A stretch of 64,000 nucleotides of DNA. Source: Schmidtea polychroa (taxonomy: Eukaryota). Made by a program: the position numbers and the translations under genes. Below, in pieces: positions 2,600 to 51,000 of this stretch (position 1 is the first letter of the stretch; each line of letters opens with the position of its first letter). The notes beneath the pieces were generated by a model, which ran no database searches, had not been told where the DNA came from, and saw nothing but the letters and a program-made list of their open reading frames with translations. Where the stretch lies: positions 930,001 to 994,000 of the forward strand of contig CM097885.1 in assembly GCA_044892525.1 (NCBI GenBank), in the 5' to 3' direction.

Positions 2600-3640
2600 T
2601 TACCTTTTACCTTGACTGCATTGATGGAGGTGCTACTCGTCAAGAACCTACCTCATGCAGTTATCCATTTGTATGCCGAATGTCCTTTACCGTCGAACTT
2701 CCTGTGGCTTCGTCATAATCGTTCTTATTGGTCTAACAATGTACCGCACTACGTCGATCCCTCTTATAAGGTTTCTGAATTTCAACATTTTGATCTTATC
2801 ATAGCCCATTTTTGACTACTTTGGTGACAACATCAGAGTGCCTTCTTTTATTTTTTACCTTTTTAGGATCTGACCTTCACAGTGGATACATAAAGATTTT
2901 CAGCAAAAGCCTCAGCGATATGTAATTTCATTTATTTCCATTTTCAGCGTAGATTAGACTAGTAATGTCATGTAATTCTGAACACTTCTCATGCTTTCTT
3001 TCTTTATTTTCAATTTCTAGTTTAATATTTACATCCATCATTTTTATTTTTATTTTTATTTTTATTCTGATATTGCATTTATTATTTCTATGTAGATAGT
3101 TTAATACCTAAATCGGTATTCCTTACTAAATCGAAAGGTTTAAGCGGTCCTTATACATGCATCATACTGATCCCAGTTGGTGTATAAAATAAACTGCATT
3201 GATGAAGGTTCGAACCGTCATCGTTATCTCTCTTGCAGTCAGTCATTTGTGTGGACCTTTTCTTTGTCTTTTTTGCCAGATCCTCTATCTCAGTGGTAGA
3301 TAGGCCAATAATCCTTAGTATTGTGTATATTTATCCCAATACCCTAAGGTACCTATTACAAGGACATGTAACGTGTGTGGTCGTTTATGGAGGTGTCCGA
3401 TTTCCACTTGTTGTTCCACCGATTGTTCCACTTTACCAACTGTGCTTTAACAGCTTCGTACTCAGCCAGTGTGCTTATCCTTTCATCCCTGCACTCTTCA
3501 ATTTGTCAATTCGCCTATCACGCTTCGCAAGTAGAACTTCTGCTACTTGTTTGAATCCTTTCTGTGCATTCGGACCCCAACGGCAACTACTTACTCTTGC
3601 CGCTAGTATCTTTTTAAGTGTCCTAGTTAATACTGAGCAC
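2600..3640 (-). pseudogene. Degenerate, deleted R2-family fragments
   Basis: Blocks at ~2610-2740, 3155-3225, 3475-3540 and 3550-3637 resemble 6810-7010, 7096-7160 and 14320-14400 of the R2 copies. Confidence 0.7.
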
Positions 3641-3689
3641 GCTCTTCCTCTATTTTTGAAGGCTTTCTTAAATCGGCATCCAAGCTAGT

Positions 3690-4320
3690 TCGCTGGTCAT
3701 GTTTTCGGTTATTGGGAGTCATTTCCTAATATTTTTGATTTCAAGTTTTGGCTGGGTGCTTTGTTTTGCCTGTGTTTTAATAGAATGGGAATAGGTACCT
3801 TTTCTCGGAGAGATGCTTTTTCAGGAATGGTGATGTTGAAGTGATGGACTCCTTCTCCTGGTAGTATTCCTCACTATATCTGCGTATGTTTTTGATGTAG
3901 GTTCTTTTGCATTCATTTTGTTTTCGTCTAAGTACCAAATGATATAGATAAATATTGGAACTGGGGCATAATTTATTCATAATCCGAAGGCTTCAATGGT
4001 TATACGTCAGCTGCCTCCTGGCTTCTCTGATAAAATTCTCTTTTTCTCCTTGGAATTGCCGCCCATTTCTGCGCAGTGCTAGGAATCTTATATTGGAGTG
4101 ATTCTCCGAAGCACTGGTAAACGGCGGGAGTTATAATGTAACGATTGTTTTTGGAATCTTGCATGTAATATTTTTACGGAAAAGAGGTGCTAGGAAGTGA
4201 TTCTCCTAAGCGCTGGGAAACGGCGGGAGTAATCTGGTAATAATTTGAGTTTCTGAATAACATTAAAGAAATATTTTCACAGTAAAAAAGGGGACCTCCA
4301 TCAGGCATTATCTTTTTCAT
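3690..4320 (-). mobile_element. 5' region of a NeSL/R5-like retrotransposon with two 28S-like motifs
   Basis: 3987-4040 is homologous to 28455-28510. AAGC.CTGG.AAACGGCGGGAGT occurs at 4108-4131 and 4208-4232, and is shared with 13397/20149 at the 5' end of the long R5-like copies. Confidence 0.55.
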
Positions 4321-4324
4321 TTTC

Positions 4325-5786
4325 CTAAACTTTTAATTTTTCTATTTCTTTAACCTTTTTATAGAAAACTTTATTATCCTTTTCTATATTTGAAAATTTT
4401 ACATTATTAAAAGCGAAAATATCATTAATACCGCAATTTTGATTATTAATTACCGTTATTTTAGCTTTCGGATAATTTTGAAATAATAAATATGGCATTT
4501 TCATCCTTTTCCTTGTCATCGGGCGAGATTTTTTTCCAATCGGCCAGTGTGATTCCATCAAGTCCTGGAGCAGTGTTTTGGAGTTGTGAGAAGATTTATT
4601 ATTTAGGATCTTCGTTATCTCCTCTTTAGGTTTTGTTTTATATTTGGATCTTTTAATACAAAGCAGTTCATTTTTAGTCCAGGTTTTTTTATGGACAATG
4701 TCTGCTGGTTTTTTAATTTTCTTTTTTTTCCATTTCATTAAGGGCTGTTTCACGGTCCATATTGTCGTTATTTAAATTAGTTATTAAACCTTTAATAAGT
4801 GGGAGGTATTTTTTAATATTATCGTCAGGTATTTTGTAGGTAAAATAGTTTTCCTCAACAGTTCTGATATTTTTTTGCATAATAGTAATTTTAGGAATGG
4901 TTAGTTTAGTATTCTTTATCAGGCATTGGATGAGGTGGCACACAAAAAAGGCAACTGGGATATTCATATTTTGTGAGTGTAATTGGGAGTGGTGAAACGT
5001 TTTTTTGCAGATCAAGAATGGTATTCAGTATGCTATTAGCGAAAGATAAGTGTATGGAGTGGCTAGCGTCAAGTAAAGAATCTATTATAACAGCTAATTG
5101 TCTCCGCTTATCAAGATAAAAGAAAAACCAGTTGTCTTTGCCATTTGACATTGGCATAATAATTTCGTTCCACTCTGCGAAGTCTTTGAAGGGGAAGGAG
5201 GAGAAGAAGGTTTTGTAATTATGCTGGATTAGAAAGTTATCAACATAAGGGTCAACAAACATGGTAGATTTTTTCATGGCGAAAGAGTAAACGAAGCTGA
5301 TTCCTTATCCACGTTATTATAAGCAATCATTTGGTATTTCTCTACTATAGTTAAAATCAAAACCATTTAGACATTCTTCATCTGATGAAGTTTGTTTCCC
5401 TTCCTTTGTGTTTCAAGGTTATCTGCAATCACGTCCTGGGTGTTTTATACATTATTCATAATATTATAGTCATAATACTATTGTTAGTATTTGGTGGTAT
5501 TGGGTGGCGTTGAGCTATATGATTGATAATGCCATCTACTGGGACCCAGCTCCTACATGCACAGTATATATCGGCATTTTTAACAATAATTCCATTTCTA
5601 TGTTTTTTTGACATGTGCTCCCATACATATGCCAATGGAGTGTCCCAATTCCACGTCGTAAAGCATTTTTTGTAGTTCTTATTGTGGCTATTACATGTGA
5701 GGTGATTATTTTTGTCGATTTTAATAAATATCATTTTGAGGGTATCTTTATCATTTTGTATTTCATGCACATATTGTTCGACATAT
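4325..5786 (-). pseudogene. NeSL/R5-like retrotransposon fragment (subfamily B): C2H2 fingers + Ulp1-like domain
   Basis: Frameshifted ORFs 5456-5845, 4906-5277, 4713-5015 and 4325-4753. CxC..H..H finger and EIIMPMSNGKDNWFFFYLD motif. Homologous to 9522-11471 and near-identical to 24140-25310. Confidence 0.75.
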
Positions 5787-6026: not shown

Positions 6027-6219
6027 AAGGGACTTTTATTCCCTACTACAAGGGACTTTTATTCCCTACTACAAGGGACTTTTATTCCCTACTACAAGGG
6101 ACTTTTATTCCCTACTACAAGGGACTTTTATTCCCTACTACAAGGGACTTTTATTCCTTACTACAAGGGACTTTTATTCCCTACTACAAGGGACTTTTAT
6201 TCCCTACTACAAGGGACTT
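6027..6219. repeat. 23-bp tandem repeat (AAGGGACTTTTATTCCCTACTAC) x8.4 in R2 3' UTR
   Basis: Units start at 6027, 6050, 6073, 6096, 6119, 6142, 6165 and 6188, with a partial unit at 6211. No spacers. Confidence 0.95.
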
Positions 6220-9521: not shown

Positions 9522-12500
9522 TTAACCCATTCGGGTACGAAAGGATTTCCAGCATATTGGTGATCTGGAATTACGAAGGATGTTGTTACATAAGGCAAGG
9601 ATGAGCTCAAAGTTAGGAGATATCTTTCTCCAATCGCTTAGGGAGATTTTATCGGTACCAGGGGCAGTATTGTCGAGTTGGCAGAAGATACTTTTAATGT
9701 CATCAATGTCAAAGGGAATGATGGTTAATGATTCAGAGAGTGCTGGGTACTGATAGTTAAGGTTAAATGTGCAATCGGAGGTTTTGCTAGCAAAAAGTTT
9801 TAAAATATGATCCATATTTGGTGTATGTGTTTTCATTTGATTATTTAAGATTTTTGAAATTTCCTCTTTAGGAGCAAATTTATATTTTTGTCTCTTGGTA
9901 AATACCAGCTCTTTACTAACCTTATAATTTTTGTGAATAATGTCCGATGCTTTCTTTGTGATGTATTTATGAGGATTAATGCTTCCATTAATTCTCTCAA
10001 TCTCACTTAAGGCAGCATCGCATTCAATTAGATTGTTATTTAGATTAATAATTAGACAATTGATAAATGGTCGGAATTTCCGCACATCATCATTTGGCAA
10101 TTTGCAATAATTATAATTATTTATAGTAGTTTTAATATCATTAATCATATTAGTTACATTAGGGCAAGTTAATTTTTTACGTTTAATAAGGCATTCGATA
10201 AAGTGGCATATATAGAAAGCAGAGTCTGTAGGTACGAAGCAACGAGGGTATGCAGGATTTTGAAGTACAATTTGGACAGGGCTTACAATATTTTGGAGAT
10301 CAAGAATGGTTTCGAGGATATTCTGAGCTAATAAGAGGTGAGTAGAGAGGCTATCGTCAAGAAGCGGGTCAATGAGTACAGCAAGTTTACGATGTTTGTC
10401 AAGTAGAAAGAAGAACCAGTTGTCTTTACCATCAGACATGGGCATGATAATCTCATTCCAGTGAGCAAATTCAGAGAAAGGAAAGGTGGCAAAGAAGGTT
10501 ACATAGTTATGCTGAATAAGTGCATTTCCTATGAATGGGTCTACAAAAATAGAAGAGTTTTTCAAGGCATTTGAAAAGATATATGCCTTGATTGCATGTT
10601 GTGACCATCATGTCGACTCCTTCTCAACATTATTACCGAAGATAAGGGTATCAGGAAGGGGACGTTTGACAATTTCGCTTTCAGAGAAAATAGCCTCAAA
10701 TTCTTGCGACTCAAGAATTGGGCGCAAGTTGTTCACATTTTCAAGGGGGCTATCCTGTATCTGGGAGATCACAAGCGGAGTGGGGATATTGCCTGGATAC
10801 ACATAAGGTTCTGGGTGATATTCGAGGATATGTTGTCGAATAAGGTGATTGGAGATCCATGATCCACAGAAGCAGTATATTTCCTCGTCAGGGTAAAAGA
10901 TAAGTTTTTTATGTTTGACCTTTATGTGGTTAATAATGGTCATAAGGGGGGTGTCGATGTCAAAGATGGTTTTACATTTATTGCGATTTTTACTATAGTT
11001 GAAGCATATGAGGTTATTGGAGGGTGAAATCCGGATTTCAGCGCGGCTCATATATTCCAGGTCGCATTGGTCTATGTGTTGAAAGTGGGTGATGTGATTA
11101 TAAATTTGTTTGAAAGTTATTGGATTTGGCGCAAATTTATTCTCACCAGGAGTTCTACATTGAATGCAATCGATAAGAGTATTTTCGTCAATTTTTAATC
11201 TATGAAAGTCCCACGCGTGCTTAAAGATTTTTTTGCGATTATGGACAGAAACAGGACTGCAAAGTGTTGTCCTGCATTTGGACCTGCATTCGATTTTGCC
11301 CCTACCATTAAGTTTGAGAAGTATTTTGTTATCAAGTTCACTCTCATCTGCTGTTTTTGGGACGAAGGTATTGTGTGTGTGTTTGGCCAATGTTATGGGT
11401 GTGAGGTATTTAGGAGATGGGGCAGGGATATTATTTGCAATCACTTGTATTTTTTTATTAAATACTTCCATTTGTGATTGTATTCTTAATGCCTCTTGGA
11501 TTTCGTTGCATTCAGATTCAGAAGGAGTAGGTGCGGTGACTTAAGGTGTACTGCTAAGCTCAGTAGCGTTGGTAGTTTTAGATTGGATAAATTCAGGCGT
11601 ATTATGAAGACAGGCAGTTGTCATAGGGTTGTCAGTGTTGTTGTTGGAAGAGGAAGAGGCTGTGGGCTGGAGAGGTGGTTCTTGGTCGATAGAGGCTACA
11701 CTGCTGCTCGATAGATTCACATCATCTATGTCCGAGTTAAAAAGATCATTATTTGCCTGGGGATTTACAAGAGATTGAGATGGGTTTTGAGGAGTTTGAG
11801 AATTATACTCATCTATTGGAAGGGGGTCAATGGTGTCATCAAAGTCACAGCTGTAGTGTGAAGTGTCAAGAATGTATTCAGAGCAAGAGGAGGACGAGGG
11901 GTTAAGAGAGAGATCAGAGTCATTGTCAATAGTATCATTTAATGGAGAGCGTTTAACATGGGGAAGGGCAATGAGGGAATCATCAGTATTGTTCTCATAA
12001 TTATTAATTTTATTTTTATTTTTATAAATAGAGTAGAGGGTTGTGTATTTACCCTTACGTATGATTTTTTTAACAAAACAAGATTTTATTACTTTACTAT
12101 TGTTATCGTTAAAAATTGGAGGAAGGTTTTTAAGATCCTTGGGCTTATGGATGAAATCATTCCGGATAGGCTCAGAATAATGACGTTTCAAGGAAGTTCC
12201 AAGGTTTTTATTAGAAAGAGTTTGAGGTATAGTGTAAGTATTTCGATTGTCAGGTACATAATTAGCCATATTCACAGGAGAAAGAAAGGTATCAGTTGTT
12301 TGTGAGTTTGGAGTTTGATTATAAACTAAGTTGTTTAAGGTAGGTTCAGAACTAACGAGCTTTTCGCTGAAGGTGACAGTCTTTGAAGAGGCGAGTCGGC
12401 CGCAGGCCGGCGAGCTGCGTGTTTTCTTATGTTCCGAAGGAACACGAGAAAAATTTTTTTGAGAAAGAGTGTGGTTAAATAAGTGATATTTAAACAAAGA

Positions 12501-13456
12501 AAAGTCTTTATTTAAAATAGATAGTTTATTTAAATTAATAAATTTTGATATATTTTGTATTATAATATTAATTAACTCACTAGAAAATCCATTAAAAGGG
12601 ACTTCTGTGAAGTTTGTATTTTTATACTCCATAATTAATTTTTTAATGATATATTTAATTTTATTTTTAAAAAATTTCTCATATTTATAATTAATTTGAT
12701 TATCACAATAATTATTCAAATTCTTATTTATCACTATTTTTAAATTTATCATTACAAGTTAAATTATCATTATCATGAGAGTCATAAGTATAATTATTAG
12801 AAGGTCTAAAATTATTAATACTATAATCTCTATAATAATTTTGATTATGATTACCCTTTTTTAATAAGTGAATCTTTCGAGCTGGGCAAAAAGTTTTCCA
12901 AGAGGTGGCATATATATCGGGAGTTTCATTCACTTTAGCATTCTTCTCAGAATAGTATCTCTTAGGCATACGGTTCACTTCATTGTTACAGGTAAGAGAA
13001 CTTCCATTATTGATCGGCTCCTTGTGATTAATTGTATCCGTTATTTTAGTACGTGCTGTGGCAAATGTGCCATATTGCTTGAGGATCATCCTAGATGGGC
13101 AGTAAGATCTGATTTTCCTCGTTTCATATGTATCAGCAGGTGATTCGTCGGGTGGGTTCTCATCGGTTCTATATATATGTTTAGGATGCAATAAATTTAC
13201 TTTATCGATTGGTTTATCTCTGGAAGAAGAGCCTCTCCCATGTGGATCTGAGGGGCCGAAGGAGATACATGAGGTCGAATATCATCAGCTCTATTAAAAA
13301 GTTTAGATAGTAATAACAATAAGTTGTTCTTAATATTGTCTCCATTATTGGAGCTTCTTCCATCCAGGTAGGTATTATTATTCCTGGAATTCTGCTAAGC
13401 ACTGGTAAACGGCGGGATTCTCGAATATCTTGTCAAAAATTTTCATTGGTATCATA
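9522..13456 (-). mobile_element. NeSL/R5-like RLE retrotransposon (subfamily A), 3'-truncated in early RT, copy 1
   Basis: 11541-12752, 10608-11471 and 9522-10565 lie in one frame separated by single stops. Four C2H2-like fingers, an Ulp1/C48-like domain, then the RT start (TAPGTDKI..SDW...P..WKSFRT). An Ulp1-like domain before RT is typical of the NeSL clade. Confidence 0.8.
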
Positions 13457-15420
13457 TCGTTCTCGGCCAATAAGCAGGTGTAACCATTTGCGAACCGCGC
13501 CTCTAGTCATTTTATCCAATACCCCTAATTCGGTGGTATCGGTTTCCCCTAGCACAGCCTCATGTAAGATACCTGGTATCAAAAAGTCACTAAGCACCTC
13601 TAACTTTTGTTGCGGCTTAATAGGTGCCCTCGTAATATACTCAAGACGTTTAGTATAAAGATTGGATAGCTTTTTAGTAGTGCGACCAAGGGCTCCAAAT
13701 TGGATCCCAAAATACTTATAGTAGTCGTCAGCTGACATGGCAGGGAACTCTTCCCCATCAGCACTTACCTTTTCGCTAGTAACCATCCATTTTTTCTGCT
13801 TACCGTCCCCTCGCGCTATAATGGAGGCACTCTTACTTGGATTAACACTAAGGCCATTAGAAACCAATTCATTTAAAACCGTTGTTAACAGGTGTTCTAA
13901 CACCGCTTTGGTTTCACTAACTATTACTAAGTCGTCGGCATACGCCAAAATGGGATAGGTTATTCCCCTCACCTTATAGCCAATACCAGTTTCATATGCT
14001 TTCTGGATGGCGAGATCGATGACATTGTTGAACAGCGCGGGTGAAAGAGGGTCGCCCTGTTTCGCCCCCCTGTTAAACTTTGCCCCAATGCCATCGACCG
14101 TAGTTGTAGCATTGTTATAGCTCTCTTTAACATACCTTAAAAGCAATTCGGGATAACGCGCTAATTTCGCCGCTCTCATGATACTATCATGATTCACAGA
14201 ATCGAAGGCCTTTTTCGTATCGACAAAGGCAATTGCTACATTCCTAAATTTAGTTCGCGCATCAGAAAGGATGCAATCCAGCAAAGTGGTGTTTTCAAGG
14301 CACCCATCCACTGGCTTAAACCCCTTCTGTGCATTCGAACCCCAGCGACAACTACTTACTCTTGCCGCCAAGATCTTATTAAGTGTCCTAGTTAACACTG
14401 AGTTAACGGAAATAGGCCTATAGTCCCCTGGACTTTTGGGGTTTTCAACTTTTGGGATTAATGAGGTTCGTGCTGTCTTTAATACTGGGGGTAAATGTCC
14501 TAGAGCTAATATAAGATTAAACAACTTGAAGAGCGCAGCATGCGGTATAGTTCTCAAGGCCTTCGCGCTAATGCCGTCAGGACCACTAGCCGTTTTCAAT
14601 TTCATCTTTATCACAGCAGCTGCGATCTCCTCCAATGAGATGTGTGCAGCTACTGACTTATCCTCAGTTGTCCTCTGGACAGGCCGGGTATCGGGTTCAG
14701 ACTCTTTTTCGAAAACCTGTTTCCAATAGTCCCCTCTACCCGGCATTGGATCATCCTCCAACAGCAGACTATCCTGCTTACCTTCAAGGATAGTGCTAGC
14801 GGCCGCACTTCGATCCTTCTGGAATAATCTCTGCAAATCCCCATAAATAGCTCTCTTCCTAGCTACCTTTATGTGCTTTTTAACCTTTGTACCATCCACG
14901 GGGACCTGGTACGTTTGGTTAAACTTGTTTTTCCTCTTTTTGAGTTTTACTTGAAACTGCTTAGTTACTGATAAGCAATATTCATCAAGCAAAACTCGTT
15001 GAGAATTTTCATCTTCAGTAAGGATGATCCTATCCAGTTGGTCCTCATGCCAAATGCTATGACCCTTGCTTCGAGGGAATTTCCTTAAAATAGTCATGAT
15101 GTCTGGAGATGGACTCCGGGCTTGTGGGTTCTCCATCGCCTCCTCCATGCCCATCCCCTTCATCTTGTCTTCTAACTCTTTAAACACTGCTTTATATTTA
15201 TTACTATCTAAGTGTTTGCGAATGGATTCCTTTGAACGTTTGAAGGCTGAACATCCAAGGTGAAGTATATCAAGAAGGTGAGATTGAGGTCTATAACGAT
15301 TTTCAAGGTGAAGTTGAGCCATGAGGAGCTCTTCTTCATTACTCCAGTAATAAGCAGGTTTATTGGAAAGTTTCCTCAAGATGGCCTCATCACGTAAGGT
15401 GCGATGGGATTTAGATATTT
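13433..15420 (-). pseudogene. R2 ORF fragment (Myb + complete RT), truncated at both ends
   Basis: ASGPDGI, LIPK, DYRPISV, QKGF, DTKKAFDSV, GAKQGDPLSPALFN, AYADDL, YKYFG. Ends after RKWLHL through a deletion. Confidence 0.93.
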
Positions 15421-16273
15421 TACTTGAAACTGCTTAGTTACTGATAAGCAATATTCATCAAGCAAAACTCGTTGAGAATTTTCATCTTCAGTAAGGATGA
15501 TCCTATCCAGTTGGTCCTCATGCCAAATGCTATGACCCTTGCTTCGAGGGAATTTCCTTAAAATAGTCATGATGTCTGGAGATGGACTCGGGGCTTGTGG
15601 GTTCTCCATCGCCTGCTAACTCTTTAAACACTGCTTTATATCAGAACGTGTTCATTTCGGTTATCATGTCATCAGGAGTAATGATTTTTGGAGAGGCAGT
15701 GATGATCGGATTATCATTGTTGTCGAGGTCGGTATTGGAATTGAAGTTGATGAATTAGCATGGATATTTGATCTAGATGCTCAGTCGTAAGGGGTTCGGA
15801 TAGGTCTTGATAGTTTGAGTTGATGGAGTTTATGAGTTCCGATATGGAAGTTGGATGGTCTTCATTAAGTTGATCATTTTCTTGGTTATTTTGGTGGATA
15901 AGTCTGGGTATTTGATTCAGATCTTCAGTAGCAAGGCGTTCGGAGAGGTCTGGATTTTGGTTAGTAGGATCATCAGGAGGCTTTTATAGCTAGTCTCTGA
16001 GTATTGGAGGTCAGCCATTTGCAGGGAGGGCATGATCTAAATAAATAAGTTTCGGGGCAGGAAGGCTCCCATGCAAAGTTTATAGCGAGAAATAAGTACT
16101 TATTATAATATATATTATAAGGAGTTAGTGAAGGTTGAGGTAAGTATATTAGTATTAATAGTTAATAGAGGTGTTGATTATAGTATCAATAGTATAATAA
16201 TAATGATTATAGTATTAATAAAAACAACTAAAAAGACCACCAAATAGGCAGAACCCCTACAAGGATTCCTACA

Positions 16274-19200
16274 TTAACCCATTCGGGTACGAAAGGATTT
16301 CCAGCATATTGGTGATCTGGAATTACGAAGGATGTTGTTACATAAGGCAAGGATGAGCTCAAAGTTAGGAGATATCTTTCTCCAATCGCTTAGGGAGATT
16401 TTATCGGTACCAGGGGCAGTATTGTCGAGTTGGCAGAAGATACTTTTAATGTCATCAATGTCAAAGGGAATGATGGTTAATGATTCAGAGAGTGCTGGGT
16501 ACTGATAGTTAAGGTTAAATGTGCAATCGGAGGTTTTGCTAGCAAAAAGTTTTAAAATATGATCCATATTTGGTGTATGTGTTTTCATTTGATTATTTAA
16601 GATTTTTGAAATTTCCTCTTTAGGAGCAAATTTATATTTTTGTCTCTTGGTAAATACCAGCTCTTTACTAACCTTATAATTTTTGTGAATAATGTCCGAT
16701 GCTTTCTTTGTGATGTATTTATGAGGATTAATGCTTCCATTAATTCTCTCAATCTCACTTAAGGCAGCATCGCATTCAATTAGATTGTTATTTAGATTAA
16801 TAATTAGACAATTGATAAATGGTCGGAATTTCCGCACATCATCATTTGGCAATTTGCAATAATTATAATTATTTATAGTAGTTTTAATATCATTAATCAT
16901 ATTAGTTACATTAGGGCAAGTTAATTTTTTACGTTTAATAAGGCATTCGATAAAGTGGCATATATAGAAAGCAGAGTCTGTAGGTACGAAGCAACGAGGG
17001 TATGCAGGATTTTGAAGTACAATTTGGACAGGGCTTACAATATTTTGGAGATCAAGAATGGTTTCGAGGATATTCTGAGCTAATAAGAGGTGAGTAGAGA
17101 GGCTATCGTCAAGAAGCGGGTCAATGAGTACAGCAAGTTTACGATGTTTGTCAAGTAGAAAGAAGAACCAGTTGTCTTTACCATCAGACATGGGCATGAT
17201 AATCTCATTCCAGTGAGCAAATTCAGAGAAAGGAAAGGTGGCAAAGAAGGTTACATAGTTATGCTGAATAAGTGCATTTCCTATGAATGGGTCTACAAAA
17301 ATAGAAGAGTTTTTCAAGGCATTTGAAAAGATATATGCCTTGATTGCATGTTGTGACCATCATGTCGACTCCTTCTCAACATTATTACCGAAGATAAGGG
17401 TATCAGGAAGGGGACGTTTGACAATTTCGCTTTCAGAGAAAATAGCCTCAAATTCTTGCGACTCAAGAATTGGGCGCAAGTTGTTCACATTTTCAAGGGG
17501 GCTATCCTGTATCTGGGAGATCACAAGCGGAGTGGGGATATTGCCTGGATACACATAAGGTTCTGGGTGATATTCGAGGATATGTTGTCGAATAAGGTGA
17601 TTGGAGATCCATGATCCACAGAAGCAGTATATTTCCTCGTCAGGGTAAAAGATAAGTTTTTTATGTTTGACCTTTATGTGGTTAATAATGGTCATAAGGG
17701 GGGTGTCGATGTCAAAGATGGTTTTACATTTATTGCGATTTTTACTATAGTTGAAGCATATGAGGTTATTGGAGGGTGAAATCCGGATTTCAGCGCGGCT
17801 CATATATTCCAGGTCGCATTGGTCTATGTGTTGAAAGTGGGTGATGTGATTATAAATTTGTTTGAAAGTTATTGGATTTGGCGCAAATTTATTCTCACCA
17901 GGAGTTCTACATTGAATGCAATCGATAAGAGTATTTTCGTCAATTTTTAATCTATGAAAGTCCCACGCGTGCTTAAAGATTTTTTTGCGATTATGGACAG
18001 AAACAGGACTGCAAAGTGTTGTCCTGCATTTGGACCTGCATTCGATTTTGCCCCTACCATTAAGTTTGAGAAGTATTTTGTTATCAAGTTCACTCTCATC
18101 TGCTGTTTTTGGGACGAAGGTATTGTGTGTGTGTTTGGCCAATGTTATGGGTGTGAGGTATTTAGGAGATGGGGCAGGGATATTATTTGCAATCACTTGT
18201 ATTTTTTTATTAAATACTTCCATTTGTGATTGTATTCTTAATGCCTCTTGGATTTCGTTGCATTCAGATTCAGAAGGAGTAGGTGCGGTGACTTAAGGTG
18301 TACTGCTAAGCTCAGTAGCGTTGGTAGTTTTAGATTGGATAAATTCAGGCGTATTATGAAGACAGGCAGTTGTCATAGGGTTGTCAGTGTTGTTGTTGGA
18401 AGAGGAAGAGGCTGTGGGCTGGAGAGGTGGTTCTTGGTCGATAGAGGCTACACTGCTGCTCGATAGATTCACATCATCTATGTCCGAGTTAAAAAGATCA
18501 TTATTTGCCTGGGGATTTACAAGAGATTGAGATGGGTTTTGAGGAGTTTGAGAATTATACTCATCTATTGGAAGGGGGTCAATGGTGTCATCAAAGTCAC
18601 AGCTGTAGTGTGAAGTGTCAAGAATGTATTCAGAGCAAGAGGAGGACGAGGGGTTAGGAGAGAGATCAGAGTCATTGTCAATAGTATCATTTAATGGAGA
18701 GCGTTTAACATGGGGAAGGGCAATGAGGGAATCATCAGTATTGTTCTCATAATTATTAATTTTATTTTTATTTTTATAAATAGAGTAGAGGGTTGTGTAT
18801 TTACCCTTACGTATGATTTTTTTAACAAAACAAGATTTTATTACTTTACTATTGTTATCGTTAAAAATTGGAGGAAGGTTTTTAAGATCCTTGGGCTTAT
18901 GGATGAAATCATTCCGGATAGGCTCAGAATAATGACGTTTCAAGGAAGTTCCAAGGTTTTTATTAGAAAGAGTTTGAGGTATAGTGTAAGTATTTCGATT
19001 GTCAGGTACATAATTAGCCATATTCACAGGAGAAAGAAAGGTATCAGTTGTTTGTGAGTTTGGAGTTTGATTATAAACTAAGTTGTTTAAGGTAGGTTCA
19101 GAACTAACGAGCTTTTCGCTGAAGGTGACAGTCTTTGAAGAGGCGAGTCGGCCGCAGGCCGGCGAGCTGCGTGTTTTCTTATGTTCCGAAGGAACACGAG

Positions 19201-20208
19201 AAAAATTTTTTTGAGAAAGAGTGTGGTTAAATAAGTGATATTTAAACAAAGAAAAGTCTTTATTTAAAATAGATAGTTTATTTAAATTAATAAATTTTGA
19301 TATATTTTGTATTATAATATTAATTAACTCACTAGAAAATCCATTAAAAGGGACTTCTGTGAAGTTTGTATTTTTATACTCCATAATTAATTTTTTAATG
19401 ATATATTTAATTTTATTTTTAAAAAATTTCTCATATTTATAATTAATTTGATTATCACAATAATTATTCAAATTCTTATTTATCACTATTTTTAAATTTA
19501 TCATTACAAGTTAAATTATCATTATCATGAGAGTCATAAGTATAATTATTAGAAGGTCTAAAATTATTAATACTATAATCTCTATAATAATTTTGATTAT
19601 GATTACCCTTTTTTAATAAGTGAATCTTTCGAGCTGGGCAAAAAGTTTTCCAAGAGGTGGCATATATATCGGGAGTTTCATTCACTTTAGCATTCTTCTC
19701 AGAATAGTATCTCTTAGGCATACGGTTCACTTCATTGTTACAGGTAAGAGAACTTCCATTATTGATCGGCTCCTTGTGATTAATTGTATCCGTTATTTTA
19801 GTACGTGCTGTGGCAAATGTGCCATATTGCTTGAGGATCATCCTAGATGGGCAGTAAGATCTGATTTTCCTCGTTTCATATGTATCAGCAGGTGATTCGT
19901 CGGGTGGGTTCTCATCGGTTCTATATATATGTTTAGGATGCAATAAATTTACTTTATCGATTGGTTTATCTCTGGAAGAAGAGCCTCTCCCATGTGGATC
20001 TGAGGGGCCGAAGGAGATACATGAGGTCGAATATCATCAGCTCTATTAAAAAGTTTAGATAGTAATAACAATAAGTTGTTCTTAATATTGTCTCCATTAT
20101 TGGAGCTTCTTCCATCCAGGTAGGTATTATTATTCCTGGAATTCTGCTAAGCACTGGTAAACGGCGGGATTCTCGAATATCTTGTCAAAAATTTTCATTG
20201 GTATCATA
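16274..20208 (-). mobile_element. NeSL/R5-like retrotransposon (subfamily A), copy 2
   Basis: Duplicate of 9522-13456 at +6752. Confidence 0.8.
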
Positions 20209-22290
20209 TCGTTCTCGGCCAATAAGCAGGTGTAACCATTTGCGAACCGCGCCTCTAGTCATTTTATCCAATACCCCTAATTCGGTGGTATCGGTTTCCC
20301 CTAGCACAGCCTCATGTAAGATACCTGGTATCAAAAAGTCACTAAGCACCTCTAACTTTTGTTGCGGCTTAATAGGTGCCCTCGTAATATACTCAAGACG
20401 TTTAGTATAAAGATTGGATAGCTTTTTAGTAGTGCGACCAAGGGCTCCAAATTGGATCCCAAAATACTTATAGTAGTCGTCAGCTGACATGGCAGGGAAC
20501 TCTTCCCCATCAGCACTTACCTTTTCGCTAGTAACCATCCATTTTTTCTGCTTACCGTCCCCTCGCGCTATAATGGAGGCACTCTTACTTGGATTAACAC
20601 TAAGGCCATTAGAAACCAATTCATTTAAAACCGTTGTTAACAGGTGTTCTAACACCGCTTTGGTTTCACTAACTATTACTAAGTCGTCGGCATACGCCAA
20701 AATGGGATAGGTTATTCCCCCCACCTTATAGCCAATACCAGTTTCATATGCTTTCTGGATGGCGAGATCGATGACATTGTTGAACAGCGCGGGTGAAAGA
20801 GGGTCGCCCTGTTTCGCCCCCCTGTTAAACTTTGCCCCAATGCCATCGACCGTAGTTGTAGCATTGTTATAGCTCTCTTTAACATACCTTAAAAGCAATT
20901 CGGGATAACCCGCTAATTTCGCCGCTCTCATGATACTATCATGATTCACAGAATCGAAGGCCTTTTTCGTATCGACAAAGGCAATTGCTACATTCCTAAA
21001 TTTAGTTCGCGCATCAGAAAGGATGCAATCCAGCAAAGTGGTGTTTTCAAGGCACCCATCCACTGGCTTAAACCCCTTCTGTGCATTCGAACCCCAGCGA
21101 CAACTACTTACTCTTGCCGCCAAGATCTTATTAAGTGTCCTAGTTAACACTGAGTTAACGGAAATAGGCCTATAGTCCCCTGGACTTTTGGGGTTTTCAA
21201 CTTTTGGGATTAATGAGGTTCGTGCTGTCTTTAATACTGGGGGTAAATGTCCTAGAGCTAATATAAGATTAAACAACTTGAAGAGCGCAGCATGCGGTAT
21301 AGTTCTCAAGGCCTTCGCGCTAATGCCGTCAGGACCACTAGCCGTTTTCAATTTCATCTTTATCACAGCAGCTGCGATCTCCTCCAATGAGATGTGTGCA
21401 GCTACTGACTTATCCTCAGTTGTCCTCTGGACAGGCCGGGTATCGGGTTCAGACTCTTTTTCGAAAACCTGTTTCCAATAGTCCCCTCTACCCGGCATTG
21501 GATCATCCTCCAACAGCAGACTATCCTGCTTACCTTCAAGGATAGTGCTAGCGGCCGCACTTCGATCCTTCTGGAATAATCTCTGCAAATCCCCATAAAT
21601 AGCTCTCTTCCTAGCTACCTTTATGTGCTTTTTAACCTTTGTACCATCCACGGGGACCTGGTACGTTTGGTTAAACTTGTTTTTCCTCTTTTTGAGTTTT
21701 ACTTGAAACTGCTTAGTTACTGATAAGCAATATTCATCAAGCAAAACTCGTTGAGAATTTTCATCTTCAGTAAGGATGATCCTATCCAGTTGGTCCTCAT
21801 GCCAAATGCTATGACCCTTGCTTCGAGGGAATTTCCTTAAAATAGTCATGATGTCTGGAGATGGACTCCGGGCTTGTGGGTTCTCCATCGCCTCCTCCAT
21901 GCCCATCCCCTTCATCTTGTCTTCTAACTCTTTAAACACTGCTTTATATTTATTACTATCTAAGTGTTTGCGAATGGATTCCTTTGAACGTTTGAAGGCT
22001 GAACATCCAAGGTGAAGTATATCAAGAAGGTGAGATTGAGGTCTATAACGATTTTCAAGGTGAAGTTGAGCCATGAGGAGCTCTTCTTCATTACTCCAGT
22101 AATAAGCAGGTTTATTGGAAAGTTTCCTCAAGATGGCCTCATCACGTAAGGTGCGATGGGATTTAGATATATGGACTCCACGTCCCCTCAGCGTTAGGAA
22201 AGGCAAAAATCAATACTCACAGACAAACGACTGTTCCACATCCCTCTCCAGTTTTGTAGCGTTGTTATTTTTATTTGTACTCATTTTCAT
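20185..22290 (-). pseudogene. R2 ORF, N-terminus to RT (single C2H2 finger + Myb + RT), 3'-truncated
   Basis: In-frame ATG at 22290 (MKMSTNKNN...SFVCEY*FLPFLTLRGRGVHISKSH). The TGA at 22210-22212 is TGC (Cys) in the 42.9-kb copy, restoring CxxC-x12-H-x4-H. Full RT motifs follow. Confidence 0.93.
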
Positions 22291-24139: not shown

Positions 24140-25585
24140 TTTGAATCTTTTAATACAAAGCAGTTCATTTTTAGTCCTGGTATTTTTATGGACAATGTCT
24201 GCTAGTTTTTTAATTTTCTTTTTTTTCCATTTCATTAAGGGCTGTTTCACGGTCCATATTGTCGTTATTTAAATTAGTTATTAAACCTTTAATAAGTGGG
24301 AGGTATTTTTTAATATTATCGTCAGGTATTTTGTAGGTAAAATAGTTTTCCTCAACAGTTCTGATATTTTTTTGCATAATAGTAATTTTAGGAATGATTA
24401 GTTTAGTATTCTTTATCAGGCATTGGATGAGGTGGCACACAAAAAAGGCAACTGGGATATTCATATTTTGTGAGTGTAATTGCGAGTGGTGAAACGATTT
24501 TTTGCAGATCAAGAATGGTATTCAGTATGCTATTAGCGAAAGATAAGTGTATGGAGTGGCTATCGTCAAGTAAAGGATCTATTATAACAGCTAATTGTCT
24601 CTGCTTATCAAGATAAAAGAAAAACCAGTTGTCTTTGCCATTTGACATTGGCATAATAATTTCGTTCCACTCTGCGAAGTCTTTGAAGGGGAAGGAGGAG
24701 AAGAAGGTTTTGTAATTATGCATGATTAGATCAACATAAGGGTCAACAAAGATGGTAGATTTTTTCATGGCGAAAGAGTAAACGAATGCCTTTATTGTGT
24801 CCTGGGACCATCAAGCTGATTCCTTATCCACGTTATTTGTGAAAAAGCAATCATTTGGTATTTCTCTACTATAGTTAAAATCAAAACCATTTAGACATTC
24901 TTCATCTGATGAAGTTTGTTTCCCTTCCTTTGTGTTTCAAGGTTATCTGCAATCACCTCCTGGGTGTTTAATACATTATTCATAATATTATAGTCATAAT
25001 AATATTGTTAGTATTTGGTGGTATTGGGTGGCGTTGAGCTATATGATTGATAATGCCATCTACTGGGACCCAGCTCCTACATGCACAGTATATATCGGCA
25101 TTTTTATCAATAATTCCATTTCTATGTTTTTTTGACATGTGCTCCCATACATATGCCAATGGAGTGTCCCAATTCCACGTCGTAAAGCATTTTTTGTAGT
25201 TCTTATTGTGGCTATTACATGTGAGGTGATTATTTTTGTCGATTTTAATAAATATCATTTTGAGGGTATCTTTATCATTTTGTATTTCATGCACATATTG
25301 TTCGACATGTCTGTAAATGTTTTTGTGCGTAACCGGATATATTACATAGCGTTCGTTGGCCTTTGCATTGGCCGCAGTCAATGATGGAGTGTTCTGTGAT
25401 AATGATGTTGTGCGTACTGATCCAATTTTTCCCTATTGTAAATGGAAATCGCTCCAAAAAAAGGTGTGCGTAAGTGGTGTCTGCATCTACATTTCGCTCT
25501 GGAGTTGAAGTAGTAGAGGTTAGGATCTTGCCTGTATTGACTGCATTGCCAATACCAATGGGTTCAAATCCCATTTCGGTCAATT
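24140..25585 (-). pseudogene. NeSL/R5-like fragment (subfamily B), second copy
   Basis: ORFs 25287-25583, 24980-25381, 24403-24768 and 24210-24512. Zinc fingers + Ulp1-like domain. Near-identical to 4640-5786. Confidence 0.75.
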
Positions 25586-27292: not shown

Positions 27293-27706
27293 CAAATCAT
27301 CGCGTCAGATGGGGATGAAGTTCAAAATCTCGCAGTTTACACCACTCGAATTCTTACGCTTCCCCGACCGTAAAGTAAGTCGTCTACAAACGATTTAATG
27401 CCAACACGTAAATCATTAAAAATGATTCAAACATCCAAACTATTTTCATAGAATGGTTAGAGTTTAAATATATGGCTAAGCCACATCCACTAACTTGCGT
27501 TAATGAATAATAAAATTGCCTCATTACGAGGATGGCACAAAATATCATGATTTTTAGGCGAGATTCAGACTTAGAGGCGTTCAGTCTTAATCTCTCGGAT
27601 GGTAGCTTCGTGCCACTGACCTTTCGATCAAGCACATTTACCAGTGATCCGAATCTGCGGTTCCTCTCGTACTGAGCAGAATTACTATTATCATGACAAA
27701 TTATAT

Positions 27707-27743
<37 letters not shown>

Positions 27744-27802
27744 TCCAGCTCACGTTCCCTATTAGTGGGTGAACAATCCAACGCTTTGCGAATTCTACTT
27801 CG

Positions 27803-27840
<38 letters not shown>

Positions 27841-27886
27841 GACGTCGCTTTGAACGCTTGGCCGCCACAAGCCAGTTATCCTTGTG
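27293..27886 (-). rRNA. 28S rRNA: 28S (LSU) rRNA gene, 3'-terminal ~590 nt (5'-truncated, probably non-functional)
   Basis: Minus strand reads GGATAACTGGCTTGTGGCGGCCAAGCG...GATCCTTCGATGTCGGCTCTTCC...GACCGTCGTGAGACAGGTTAGTTTTACCCTAC, the sarcin-ricin loop AGTACGAGAGGAAC (~27660-27673), GACTGAACGCCTCTAAGTC, and ends near GATTTG. Confidence 0.97.
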
Positions 27887-29950
27887 AATAGTAGTCAAAA
27901 CCAAAATTTCAGAATAGGTGGTATTAATTTTTGGGTTGGTTTTGGGATTTCGCTTGTGTCCATGGATATTTTTATTCCAACAAGGGATTTAGGTTTATTA
28001 CAACTACAACATTTAGAGTTGGTAGCATTATTTTTATTTTTAGCGTTATCTGCTCCATTATCAGTTGCATTAATTACGGGTAAGTTGTCTATCAGAGCGA
28101 TGGCGTTTTTGGGATCATTAGAGAATAAAGATGAGTTGGACTGAAGGTTTTCGTTAAGGATAAATTTTTCGTTTAAAGGGGAGAGTTTATAAGAAATAGG
28201 GTTTATGAAAGAATACTCAACGTCATCGGTTACAGAGTTTCTTTGTATAGAAGCCTTTATGATATCATGAGAGTCGTTATGGCTTACTGAGTCTATGGAG
28301 ATGTGAGAGTTAGTTGTTTCGACGATAGAAGTATCGTTTAATGGAGAAGGTTTGAAGGATATGGGATTTTTTTCCATTCATTCTGTTTATCTGGTCGAGT
28401 TGCCTAAAATAAAGGTAAATATTGGAGCTATTAAAGATAATTTTATCGTAGTCTGGAGGCTTCAATGGTACCACGTCTTTTGCCTCCTGGCTTTTGTGAT
28501 ATTTTTCTCTTCTTCTCCATTGAGAACCCACCGAAAAAAGAAAAAATCAAATTTTATTTTATGCAATTAACGGGGCACATGGCCAAGAAGGGGAGATGTT
28601 ATCTGTAGCTTTTAGTTCAATAGACTGGATGTTAGAGTGTAATACTCCTACATCAAAACGTGGTTTTTCCTGAAAACTTCAGTCCTATTTGGAGTCTGGG
28701 ATCCATTCTGAAGCTCCTGGCATTGGCTCATTCACATTTACAGGTAAGCATCATTGAGCAGAGTAGGGATAATCATGGCTAATCACAGACTTGATCAGCC
28801 ATGGCTCGTATAGATGCATCTGGCATTCATTCATTCAGGTTAGTTTATTAGGAGAGGTAGACAAGTCCATCCTCTGTCTGGTGAGTATATGTCATTGAAT
28901 TCTCATTGAATTCTGAGGAGGCATTCCAAACAGATCGGGACAGATTTCGCAGTTATAGTAATTGTTAGGAGAAGCAGTTAAGGCTTCTGTCTGATTAGTT
29001 TACATGCCATTATGAGCACTAAAATCTTTCGTTTAAATCTATCCTTAATAGGATAGAGTTTATAATAAATAGGGTTTATGAAAGAATCCTCAACGTCATC
29101 GGTTACCGAGTTTCTTTGTATAGAAGCCTCTATGATATCATGAGATTCGTTATGGCTTACTGAGTCTATGGAGATGTGAGAGTTAGTTGTTTCGACGATA
29201 GAAGTATCGTTTAATGGAGAAGGTTTGAAGGATATGGGATTTTTCATAGAGTCATTATCCATATTAGAGTGTGAAAGGTGGTTAGAGTATTTCTTTGAGA
29301 TGTTGGACTCATCTTTAATGGGAGTTGAAGTAATATTTGGGAGATAGAGATTATCAAGATTAGTATTTGATGAGGCACTGCTCGATAGTTGGACATCATC
29401 GCAGTCTTCATCATCAAGATCACAGGTATTAGTTTTATTGGTATGAGGGTTTAAGTAAAAAGGAGTATGATTATCCGACGAAGATTTAAGGACTGGAGTG
29501 ATAGGAGTTGTAACTGAGATTGAGAGTATTGGCCTTGACAAGGTGTTTGTTGTCAAAAAGTCTCTTGATAATCGAGCAGATGAGATAACAGGTGTTTTTT
29601 TATGAATATTTCTATTATAATTAGATTTTGATAATTTAATATTAGAATTAGTGAATTTAAAAGATTTTAATATTTTATTTAGGCTTGAAGGTTTAATGGT
29701 ATTCATCTTTTTAGGTGAATTGGGGATATCGCGGTTATGGTCTATAAAGGTGGTGATTGGTTTTGAGAAGTGGGATAAAAGATTAAAGGCTTTTTAACAG
29801 TATTAACGTTGACGAAATTGTCAATATTTAGAGGAATGATAGGTTTAGAAGAGTGAGATCTTAAAGGATAGAGAACTAACGGTTTTATTATAACGGGTTT
29901 ATTTGAAGCAGTGGTGTTATAGGGCTTAATAAGGATAGAGTAAAGGCTAA
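27887..29950 (-). pseudogene. Rearranged NeSL/R5-like fragments (subfamily C, N-terminal low-complexity region)
   Basis: ORFs 28978-29706 and 27895-28377 share a ~190-bp duplicated block and resemble 11541-12752 (DDV.LSSS, SPLNDT). 28310-28531 is homologous to 3960-4050. Confidence 0.55.
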
Positions 29951-48344: not shown

Positions 48345-48898
48345 AGCGACTAATTTATTGGTTAACTTTGTAGTCATTTAAAGCAAAACTTAATTTATTC
48401 ATCTAATGTTCGTTACAATAGTTAATAAAATGAGAAAAATATGGTCATTATTCATTGATAATTTTAAATTCTTTATCATTTGTAGTAAATTTGATTGAGG
48501 CAAAAATAATTAAAGGAGTCATAATAGAAATATGGTTAGAAATAGAAATAATTTTAGACCTTAATTTACTTAATTGAAATTTTAGACCTTAATTTACTTA
48601 AGTTTAAAAATATATACCATAATTTACTGTAATTGAAAAATTTGGACCATAATTTACTGTAATTTAATTTTTTAGAACCATAATTTACTGTAATTGAAAA
48701 ATTCGAGCGACTAATTTATTGGTTAACTTTGCAGTCATTTAAAGCAAAACTTAATTTATTCATCTAATGTTCGTTACAATAGTTAATAATATGAGAAAAA
48801 TATGGTCATTATTGATTGATAATTTTAAATTCTTTATCATTTGGAGTAAATTTGTTTGAGGCAAAAATAATTAAAGGAGTCATAATAGAAATATGGTT
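48345..48898. repeat. ~195-bp direct repeat flanking TIR-type subrepeats
   Basis: AGCGACTAATTTATTGG...AGAAATATGGTTA at ~48345-48538 and ~48705-48899. The middle is the reverse complement of ~52540-52710. Confidence 0.8.
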
Positions 48899-50624
48899 AT
48901 CATTTAACCAATTAAGGGGCTTATTAGTTAGAAATATATATATTATAAAGTAACAATTATTTTTGTGTTTAAGGTATTCCTTGGTAATATTTTTTTTAGA
49001 GTTGATGGTTTTTGTGAATTTTTATCATTTTCATGAATTTCATGTGGATAGAATGAATATTTAAAAATTTTAAGTTAGTTCTAAGATAAATTTAATTAAT
49101 TTCTTGATAATTGGATGCATTTTTATTGATTGGTTTTTTAATTTTAAATAAAAATTATTTTTATTGACAGTTAGGTTAATAATCACGTGATAGGATATGA
49201 CTTTGTAATAATATTTTTTTTCATATATTTTCTAAGAATTTCATGTAGATTTATTTAAAAATTTAAAGTTTTAATGACGATTTTATTTGAATTTCTTGAT
49301 AATTTGTTAAATTTTAAATAAAAATTAATTTTTTTTAATGACTGTTAGGTTAATAATTAAGTAATTGGTTTAATTTTAGATGACTTTGTAATGCATTTGA
49401 CTAAATAATTTTTTTCAATAATTTTCTAAGAATATTAACACATTGATGAACTTTTTTAAAAAAAACATAAGCTAAGAAACCAGTTAACCTTATAAAGAAC
49501 TTTAAATTTACTTGATAATTTACAGAAATAATATACAAAATTTAATTTACAGAAATAATTTACAAAATAATAATACAGAAATTTATGATTAAGTTTGATT
49601 TTATGAACAATCAATATATATCATCTCTAGTTAGGTATTTGATAGGTGTAATATTTGTAGAAAATAATAAGTTTATTATGTCTTTGTTACATAACTCGAC
49701 TTTAGCGTCAAAATGTGTTTTTAAAATAAATTTTAATTTTAAAATACCGCAATGTAATATATTAATTTTTTCTAACCTTCCTTGATTTTGATTGGTTAGA
49801 ATTTGTTACTATAAACAATAATAATCTATAAACAATAATAATCTATAAACAATAATCAATCATTAGTCAAATTTAACAAATAATTAACCTTTAAAAATGA
49901 ATTCTTTAATAGAAAACGTTATGAATGTTCGAGAAAAAATTAAGGAATTTGGTAAATTTTAATTTATTTAATAATTAATTTATTAATTAATTTAGATAAT
50001 ATTAATGAAGACAATTTAAAATCTTTATTTTTTCTTAAATTTTACATTTACATTATATTCTAAAAAGAGAGTTAATTATAACAATAATATTTCAATTTGT
50101 ATAAAATTTTAATTAGTAATTATTCAATTTGAATAAAATATTTATTAGAAATTATTTAATTTATTATAAAATAAAACGCTGTGTTAATTTTAAATAAACT
50201 GGATATTAATTTTTTGGAAAAAATAAATAAATAAAATAGTCTAAAAGGTTAAATTATGGTCTAAAATTTAAAATTTAAAAATTGAAAATTGAAAATTGAA
50301 AATTAAAAACTAAACTAATCAAACTAAATCAAACGCTATAACCTTAATTCAAGAATTCACTAAAGTAGATCAGAAGATATTAATTATCAAAATGTAACAA
50401 AGACTCTGAAATTCATCAATTTCATCTAATGACCTGGTGATATTCAATACCATTCTCAAGAATGCTAAAGTCGGGAATTCTTTGAATTTAACAATTTCAT
50501 CTAACTATCCGGCGATATTCGATCCGATTCTATAAAGTATTTATCTTTGTAGTTGAATAAAAGTTTATTGTTGATTATAGTTTATCATTAATTATTTTTT
50601 TGTTAGGGGTGTTAAAGAAAATAC

Positions 50625-51000
50625 TTGACTGATTCATTTTTCTCAGATAAAATTTGTTCTGTAATCGGGAAATTCAAGGATGAGAATAAAGGAAATCAAT
50701 ATAAAGAATGGGTGTTTCTTCGTCCCAAGTGCTCCTCACTCCAAGGCGATAAAACACTCTAAAAGCCAAAGGAATAAGACTTACAAATTCTAATATCACC
50801 CATGAAGCTTATAAAAAAAGTGTATACTGATGGTGGAACAGTGAGCATCCCATTAAAAAAGAATAGGAAGTGTCAATCATCAGTTGTATACTTTCATGAC
50901 AGAAAAACGAGCTCTCCAATGTTTGGACGATAAAAGGTATTGGTACAATTGTAATGAAAGCTATGCCTACGGTCACTATAAGATTCGTCACATGCATATT
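50625..51000 (+). pseudogene. pPolB subfamily-2 C-terminal fragment in the macrosatellite (also ~55017-55392, ~59642-60017)
   Basis: GKFKDENKG...FLRPKC...LDDKRYW...YAYGHYKI, same as 31493-31860. Confidence 0.88.

Follow-up and report, generated by a model that had tools for sequence, protein, structure and literature searches.

A diverged antisense copy of the 28S target inside planarian LIN-type retrotransposons: a candidate homology arm for 5′ joining

Introduction

LIN24_SM and LIN26_SM of Schmidtea mediterranea, which belong to the R5/LIN lineage of the NeSL clade, are inserted antisense in the 28S gene right after GGCAGAAATC (S6 Fig, PMC4640811). The elements described here share with them the antisense 28S position, the T tail and a LIN26_SM-like 3′ end. 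S6 Fig gives 3′ boundaries alone for these two elements, and the features that we report below, an internal copy of the target (the tract), a short repeat (R) and a doubled 5′ block (U), go unmentioned in the parts of PMC4640811 available to us. For LIN9_SM, at another 28S site, 5′ boundaries are printed: 8 of 12 rows have diverged upstream sequence and an ATG, and 4 are host-type or mixed, both kinds occurring under accession AAWT01008734; the diverged sequence appears in that figure as flank, without comment (PMC4640811). Such a set of host-type, diverged and mixed upstream 28S rows with an ATG is what an internal tract would be expected to produce. LIN9_SM, compared here by its published 5′ boundaries, differs in having another target and, it seems, another tract.

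In R2 elements with an HDV-like ribozyme that cleaves within upstream 28S, upstream target sequence carried on the cDNA has likewise been proposed to anneal, giving uniform 5′ junctions; it consists of at most 36 nt of true 28S, obtained from the Pol I co-transcript and located at the very end of the RNA (PMC3774820). The putative LIN-type arm, in contrast, is element-encoded, internal, diverged, coding and antisense to the rRNA, and its use would go with element duplication. Diverged target sequence captured inside an element is also found in fish R2 with a 28S-derived 3′ UTR, although this capture is at the 3′ end, in sense orientation, and accompanied by target deletion (PMC5035012). Drosophila TART is a non-LTR element with a repeated 5′ block, for which a template jump from one repeat to the other has been put forward as the way in which sequence is gained upstream of the transcript start; the second of its repeats is located in the 3′ UTR, and its additions are made to chromosome ends (PMC1636488). 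The LIN-type repeats, unlike those of TART, are in tandem at the 5′ end with the target copy between them, and their doubling is tied to the rDNA target. In retroviruses and LTR retrotransposons a short terminal repeat enables reverse transcription to rebuild what lies upstream of the transcript start, and insertion yields two identical repeats. LIN-type elements differ from these in having no tRNA primer or integrase, in being target-primed, and in that the repeat is not at the 3′ end.

The separate parts (R2 cDNA annealing, 28S capture by fish R2, TART repeats and LTR strand transfer) thus have precedents, and for their combination we found no earlier account. The literature searched, including the accessible parts of PMC2718515, PMC7650587 and PMC5537684, describes no such combined layout; an earlier notice may exist elsewhere, for instance in Repbase reports, in the paper describing R5 or in the TART paper of 2010.

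Results

The motif is the core of an antisense 28S tract

We analysed a 64-kb stretch of the Schmidtea polychroa genome (the window), in which an initial annotation had marked a 28S-like motif beside element coding sequence. Indeed, AAACGGCGGGA has four exact matches in the window, all on the + strand (4119, 4218, 13407 and 20159), against a chance expectation of 0.31, and a count of 4 was reached in 0 of 100 shuffles. All RT-family fragments of the window lie on the − strand (40 of 40 tblastn matches), so that the motif is antisense in element RNA, as had been suggested. The copies at 13397 and 20149 represent a single event, being the two units of a 6752-bp tandem duplication (99.86% identity over 7646 nt).

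The tract had been put at about 20 nt; its real extent is 65–70 nt, the motif being its core. It is a diverged antisense copy of 28S H68–H69, from about TCCCGCC to GCAGAAAT, and occurs in many families (nhmmer, host 28S against the loci examined). Compared with the host's own 28S, 4065–4131 is 83.8% identical over 68 nt (type A), 4194–4232 is 87% identical over 39 nt, and 13388–13417 and 20140–20169 are 90% identical over 30 nt. Rfam aligned 4071–4125 (+) to positions 2200–2254 of the eukaryotic LSU at 14.4 bits (E 0.42, below gathering). In the motif stretch the host 28S reads GGTTAAC, not GGTAAAC, and it is close to the S. mediterranea 28S in S6 Fig of PMC4640811. A 21-nt pattern built on the motif has 49 matches in the 781-Mb genome, 40 of them on the + strand of C1:330–1290 kb and 9 dispersed; none of the 49 lies on the rDNA contigs. 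The parts of the window copies are as follows.

3637–4049, − strand: start of the U block (5′ coding region) after the tract, interrupted by R2-like fragments (68% to U positions 16–433 of locus L035; tblastn).
4062–4131, − strand: full-length tract, antisense H68–H69, equal to the upstream flank of the LIN24/26-type target (83.8% over the 68 nt, Rfam LSU, translation); encodes PAVYQCFGESLQYKIPSTAQK in frame.
4132–4176, − strand: leader of this tract, with a AAAAATATT box and an in-frame ATG at 4164, 12 codons ahead of the tract's first CCC.
4194–4232, − strand: second, shortened tract (the 39-nt match), giving a tandem leader and tract 99 nt upstream in element sense; this tandem pair recurs throughout the C1 cluster described below.
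4233–4293, − strand: leader with an in-frame ATG at 4263 and an R-like 5′ terminus, CCCCTTTTTT ... AAAATATTTCT (4293–4267), homologous to the R repeat of L033 and L036.
9522–12446, − strand: rest of element B, comprising N-terminal region, in-frame TGA, protease-like domain and RT start, 3′-truncated (56% to the protease–RT of L035); Pfam gave no match on this piece.
12447–13394, − strand: U block of element B, whose last 24 nt (12470–12447, ending AAAATTTTTCT) equal the R repeat present at the 5′ end of B in L019.
13388–13417, − strand: 30-nt tract remnant, at the coordinates given in the initial annotation, fused by deletion to element B.
13418–13459, − strand: leader of this remnant, which has in-frame ATGs (13455 and 13446) and whose upstream side is joined to a 3′-truncated R2-like RT element (13436–15433).
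20140–20211, − strand: duplicate of the 13388–13459 remnant and leader (the 6752-bp duplication).
28370–28558, − strand: LIN 3′ end whose T-rich tail (28558–28534) is joined directly to a U start (28533); the same junction is found in L045.

At 13397 and 20149, a deletion of some 180 nt has brought the remnant of one family's tract up against the body of a different family; the undeleted form of this junction is present in L019, L046 and L048. The window copies of the motif are decayed relics in a cluster of broken elements. Tandem leader–tract units occur in L032, L021 and the window. We also noted in the window a 650-nt LSU rRNA fragment (27294–27943, − strand, 436 bits), a 23-nt unit repeated 8.4 times in the 3′ untranslated region of an R2-like element (6027–6219), and tandem units of 4.4–4.6 kb at 48500–64000, about 98–100% identical, with internal inverted repeats and related to 31.5–33.8 kb.

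Across the whole cluster (C1:325–1292 kb, the window plus L040–L050, near a chromosome end), 177 of 178 RT-family tblastn matches and the LSU fragment are on the − strand. This graveyard may be likened to a single-strand piRNA cluster or to the outcome of self-nesting. The junction at 28534 is an insertion at the end of another element's tract, which has thus been used as a target at least once. An exact meeting of T-tailed LIN 3′ end and U start, here and in L045, together with the one-strand arrangement, would suit a tract kept chiefly as a decoy, so that relatives nest in old copies rather than in rDNA or genes. That the tract is kept for this purpose is nevertheless highly improbable: the junction is probably one event spread by duplication, three others in the cluster with the same tail (L020, L047 and L048) are not at a U start, R2-like fragments show the same strand bias, and the doubling of U described below would be left unexplained.

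The tract lies in the first codons of NeSL/LIN-type elements

Dispersed copies have in common 60–65 non-28S nt upstream of the tract, which places it within the element's 5′ end, as the initial annotation had it, and not merely in flanking DNA. Pure flanking DNA was ruled out, as non-28S sequence is shared on both sides and the rDNA copies hold the tract 0.7 kb inside. In 4 of 4 window copies an in-frame ATG lies 10–13 codons upstream, and the rDNA family also has one upstream of the tract; the tract thus encodes the protein start; it had been expected in the 5′ UTR, and instead occupies the first codons of the reading frame. The tract peptide is absent from all homologues collected, and a cross-species search with the N-terminal 104 aa returned two unrelated repeat proteins only.

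We compared 8 divergent types picked out of 13 element rows (alignment A1). Their mean pairwise identity reaches 0.82 within the tract, compared with 0.39 in the 36 columns before it and 0.31 in the 29 columns after it; since the copies were collected via the motif, conservation of the core is partly built in. This agrees with the earlier remark that the motif is conserved while its flanks align poorly. The same 8 types have a mean identity of 0.85 to host 28S type A and 0.71 to type B, and tract identity to host 28S ranges from 70 to 89%.

Pfam identified RVT_1 in L033, L050, L048 and L042. Peptidase_C48 is above the cut-off in L050 and L048, reaches E 0.037 in the tract-bearing L033 and has no match in element B of the window; PF02902 is present in 8 of the top 10 homologues. 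CRQC...H...C and KPD...D motifs, candidates for a C-terminal zinc knuckle and restriction-like endonuclease, can be seen by eye in L035; Pfam gives a weak zf-RVT match alone. Four LIN rows and nine unnamed proteins form a 100/100 clade apart from the R2-like element of the window, with no named reference among the matches. A non-LTR RT preceded by an Ulp1-like protease domain, as in NeSL elements, was thus found. Because L033 has an RT and a weak protease match, its relatives have a clear Ulp1-like protease and RT, and the clade holds protease–RT proteins, the sequences place the tract-bearing elements in the NeSL clade, probably as LIN type (R5/LIN lineage).

An in-frame TGA immediately precedes the protease-like frame in 7 of 7 copies checked (window 10608–10610, 17360–17362 and 24811–24813; L033, L035, L036 and L050). 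L039 and L036 have bodies that are 97.6% identical and leaders that are clearly different, so leaders may be exchanged between families.

Relatives insert antisense at the LIN24/LIN26 site

Related elements in the S. polychroa genome are inserted antisense at 28S ...GGCAGAAATC/AC (the slash marks the insertion point), which is the LIN24/LIN26 site. We counted 18 junctions of a T tail with 28S at this site (15 exact), four of which were read, against 808 intact sites. This antisense, T-tailed insertion was observed for relatives of the window's truncated copies, and the cluster elements have the same 3′ terminus as the elements at the rDNA junctions. Because the end of the tract coincides with the antisense insertion site, the tract is a copy of the elements' own upstream target flank.

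The site lies 87–88 nt upstream of the R2 nick, and in antisense; the initial annotation had assumed an R5 site near that of R2 and sense geometry. R5 of Girardia tigrina is reported to lie in sense orientation, a few bp upstream of R2, and the elements here do not use an R5-type site. A reading of the tract as the R5 or R2 target beside an R2-like element was rejected, as the element in question occupies the wrong strand and has an internal break at the junction.

Antisense insertion also bears on the proposal that element RNA pairs with 28S rRNA, in processing or to recruit ribosomes, or acts as a guide that invades target DNA. The tract in the RNA is indeed complementary to one target strand, and computed duplexes with 28S type A (−72 to −100 kcal/mol) are far stronger than self-folds (−15 to −25 kcal/mol); pairing of RNA and target has also been suggested for the 28S-like 3′ UTRs of fish R2 (PMC5035012). 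However, because the elements insert antisense to 28S, a Pol I co-transcript carries the reverse complement of the element, which excludes pairing with co-transcribed 28S. In addition, the tract has drifted away from the host sequence and become more prone to self-pairing, the majority of tract-bearing copies lie outside rDNA, and AAACGGCGGGA is absent from the tract of a family with young, near-identical rDNA insertions. For the short 11-nt motif, this absence amounts to the refutation that the initial annotation had set out. R2-type 5′ processing, by an HDV-like ribozyme pairing with co-transcribed 28S, was not found: no such Rfam family was detected in the window, nor, at E up to 1, within positions 3900–4400. 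Readings of the tract as an HDV, twister or hammerhead ribozyme, made by eye against consensus sequences, gave no fit, and Rfam returned LSU alone. Taken together, we regard a pairing role for the RNA as very unlikely.

Other events were seen in and around the 28S target. Two neighbouring rDNA units (C218:59153–59352, L060, and C218:73162–73361) carry a 5′-truncated insertion, about 100 nt long, and have lost part of the upstream target. In both rDNA types of the host 28S (L058, L059 and L060) the R2 target has CTCTCTTCAGGTAGCC in place of the canonical TTAAGG, while relics beside R2-like elements (L051 and L055) keep the A and the older GGTAAAC spelling; a possible explanation is that the host has escaped R2 here, at a position of the rRNA that is very conserved. 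Older-type 28S fragments of 50–70 nt lie 5′ of R2-like elements outside intact rDNA in L051–L057, and in L051, L052 and L054 the fragment is trapped between the R2-like 5′ end and an opposite-strand element also present in L034.

The 5′ block is doubled in rDNA insertions

Full-length rDNA insertions have the order 28S, U, leader, tract, U, body in 6 of 6 testable cases, from two families. The 5′ ends were read in C235 and C255, plus the start of C21, the upstream 28S markers having been located first; in C235 and C255, host 28S is followed by U, a leader with an ATG, the diverged tract, and U again. The U of this main family is 704 nt long and identical within a copy, and its tract is the one that lacks the 11-nt core. 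Its 19 U starts comprise five pairs exactly 769 nt apart and 9 single starts; all insertions of this family that join host 28S show the pairing (5 of 5), compared with 0 of 9 other copies (Fisher p 0.0005, the copies not being independent). The second family has U starts paired at 697 nt in C21. Among 100 listed U starts (116 in total), 91 are unpaired, and one pair among those listed lies outside the rDNA contigs. What links the C235/C255 family to the families of the window is the tract, along with the leader, the ending of R and a 3′ terminus that they have in common.

In a BLAST search with the 776-nt block (40 of 913 candidates scored), the first repeat (U1) matched 1–776 and the second (U2) matched 1–704 at 100% in all five paired copies. 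Alleles private to a copy are mirrored in both repeats: at U position 477, C255 has C in its first and second repeat alike, and C396 and C409 each have T in the two repeats; in C235 the first repeat has C and the second scores as identical. Bit-score drops are likewise equal in U1 and U2, −4 and −4 in C396, −9 and −9 in C409. The doubled insertions are partly non-independent through rDNA amplification, with three haplotypes among the five by score. The same pattern is seen in the dispersed L035, where U1 and U2 agree at 83 of 84 positions and each agrees with L036 at 74 of 84. Two repeats that are identical within a copy and share private alleles recall LTRs.

Doubling was seen in three families with different U lengths (697, 769 and 1248, the first two being the spacing of paired U starts), and no three-U array was found among the five doubled copies. 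It also occurs outside rDNA, in L035 and at C2:61463137, where R, leader, tract and U are present twice; target homology is thus not strictly needed for doubling. A seventh host-28S junction (C1:237228321) lies outside the six testable cases. One copy with a 28S 3′ junction, C3:144554491, does not fit the model set out below, as it has just one U start and lacks an upstream 28S marker, its 5′ flank being partly read. The 697-nt family is about 3.3 kb long in rDNA (C21:85701–89071), has about 90 dispersed U starts and is perhaps a non-autonomous derivative. Contigs of three sequencing runs contain U as one 723-nt piece or in parts, without joints or starts, and a run guessed to be RNA covers the 28S part only; neither bears on expression.

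Dispersed copies begin in a short repeat

Copies outside rDNA have one U, and among the candidates scored 27 of 29 have their 5′ ends at query positions 671–697, that is, 7–33 nt before the end of U at 704 (the 29 remain after dropping five U1 matches, two internal leaders, six host-28S matches and one partial match). Two products are thus found: single-U copies that start in R at non-rDNA sites, and copies in rDNA in which 28S is followed by U, leader, tract and U. The sharp genomic 5′ ends suggest that transcripts start in R.

The R repeats were read directly in L033 and L036 (26 nt) and in L019 (24 nt), with L037 marginal, and U ends in AAAATTTT(T) in each of the four. When R twins were searched for in the window and most cluster loci, only L033 and L036 among the tested tract copies were clearly above shuffled controls, L037 being marginal; an apparent match in L045 proved to be the second tract. 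No R twin was found for the four window copies in the DNA searched, the R-like terminus at 4293–4267 included. Element B has the R repeat and no tract of its own in L019, L046 and L048, which counts against the model.

Junctions with host 28S carry marks of the tract

An extra G of the tract is present in 3 of 7 junctions of host 28S with U, whereas four G's occur at one intact site and three G's at 808 (Fisher 1.5e-6; the junction pattern search covered type A 28S). Moreover, one U haplotype has both junction types, four G in C255 and three G in C235 and C428, which indicates that the crossover point varies. These junctions favour the last role offered by the initial annotation, in 5′ integration. 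Its picture of a conserved antisense sequence inside the 5′ end thus stands together with this role, while the R5 site, the sense geometry, the length of about 20 nt and the untranslated position do not.

The doubling could alternatively be inherited passively, from one chance tandem duplication per family, with the RNA template already containing two U's, identity kept by rDNA gene conversion, and the tract a captured flank retained as the protein N-terminus. In its favour, the copies are few, rDNA arrays homogenise, an ATG precedes the tract in frame, R2 lineages propagate duplicated 28S flanks (PMC3774820, in part), and gene conversion could mirror alleles. We consider this origin unlikely, given that copy-specific alleles are mirrored across 769 nt, that doubling recurs in three families of different U lengths, that most listed U starts have no partner and copies outside rDNA have a sharp start in R, that two junction types occur on one U haplotype, and that the five doubled copies contain no three-U arrays. 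Furthermore, the codons beside the tract are not conserved, while the nucleotides of the tract are.

Changes in the tract also strengthen a hairpin in the RNA, which is not predicted by a homology-arm function alone. A U–A pair is formed in 13 of 13 element rows where 3 of 3 rows derived from 28S have a mismatch, 9 of 13 element rows form a G–C, A–U or C–G pair at a second position, and element hairpins reach −14 to −24 kcal/mol, compared with −9.8 and −13.4 kcal/mol for host antisense. The tract might accordingly be kept as a folded RNA, a hairpin borrowed from antisense H68 that is bound by an element protein or pauses the polymerase, with annealing to the target secondary; binding of the element protein to the 5′ RNA of R2 offers a parallel. 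Yet the covariation score was not above shuffles (118 of 500, not significant), LIN9_SM, judging by its published boundaries, seems to have another tract that fits the target of that element, and the extra G at the junctions would be unexplained. As the main reason for the tract we find folding distinctly unlikely, and it is compatible with the homology-arm explanation; both can be true together.

Discussion

Insertion site, orientation, layout, the two products, identity of the repeats within a copy and mixed junctions can all be read directly from the genome. To account for them, we propose that the tract is an element-borne homology arm and that the 5′ block is rebuilt at insertion with the help of R. 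The element RNA would consist of R (about 10–30 nt), a leader with the ATG, the tract, U (0.7–1.2 kb, ending in a second R), the body and a T tail. Antisense insertion rules out R2-style co-transcription with the upstream target, and an arm borne by the element would take its place. Once target-primed reverse transcription has taken place, the tract in its cDNA form would anneal to the upstream target strand and set a seamless 5′ junction. A junction set in this way would remove R, the transcript start and the ATG; strand transfer from terminal R to internal R would then recopy U and restore all three, much as LTRs are regenerated. In this transfer the free 3′ end of the cDNA might switch to the newly made second strand, the second strand might switch to the flap of cDNA, or the first strand might jump. 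Because doubling is strongly tied to the rDNA target, we favour transfer after second-strand synthesis primed by the tract. The tract can also act as an insertion site for relatives.

That the tract works as a homology arm seems to us quite likely, and regeneration of U at insertion likely; the explanation as a whole, homology arm together with R-mediated rebuilding of the 5′ block, we hold to be reasonably probable. The regenerated upstream U would hold the promoter. This is a guess, given a little less than an even chance, and its rationale is that an antisense element cannot use Pol I read-through. On the same model, the window copies would be relics of families that once worked via the homology-arm route.

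The joining of the 5′ end and the keeping of a promoter are the least settled step of target-primed retrotransposition, and one that limits R2-based gene insertion. The junctions described here record 5′ joining, offering a natural internal homology arm with crossover marks and with repeats identical in each copy. The model suggests how rDNA elements in antisense orientation get transcribed, and it bears on the origin of LTR-like ends. More tentatively, and with the odds somewhat against it, the LIN lineage may rebuild its own promoter at each on-target insertion: R transfer would duplicate 0.7–1.2 kb, off-target copies would be promoterless, and each family's tract would match its own target, be it a 28S site or a tRNA gene. 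If so, target fidelity would be tied to survival, the 5′ junction would be programmable, and these planarian elements would represent a living intermediate between non-LTR and LTR replication.
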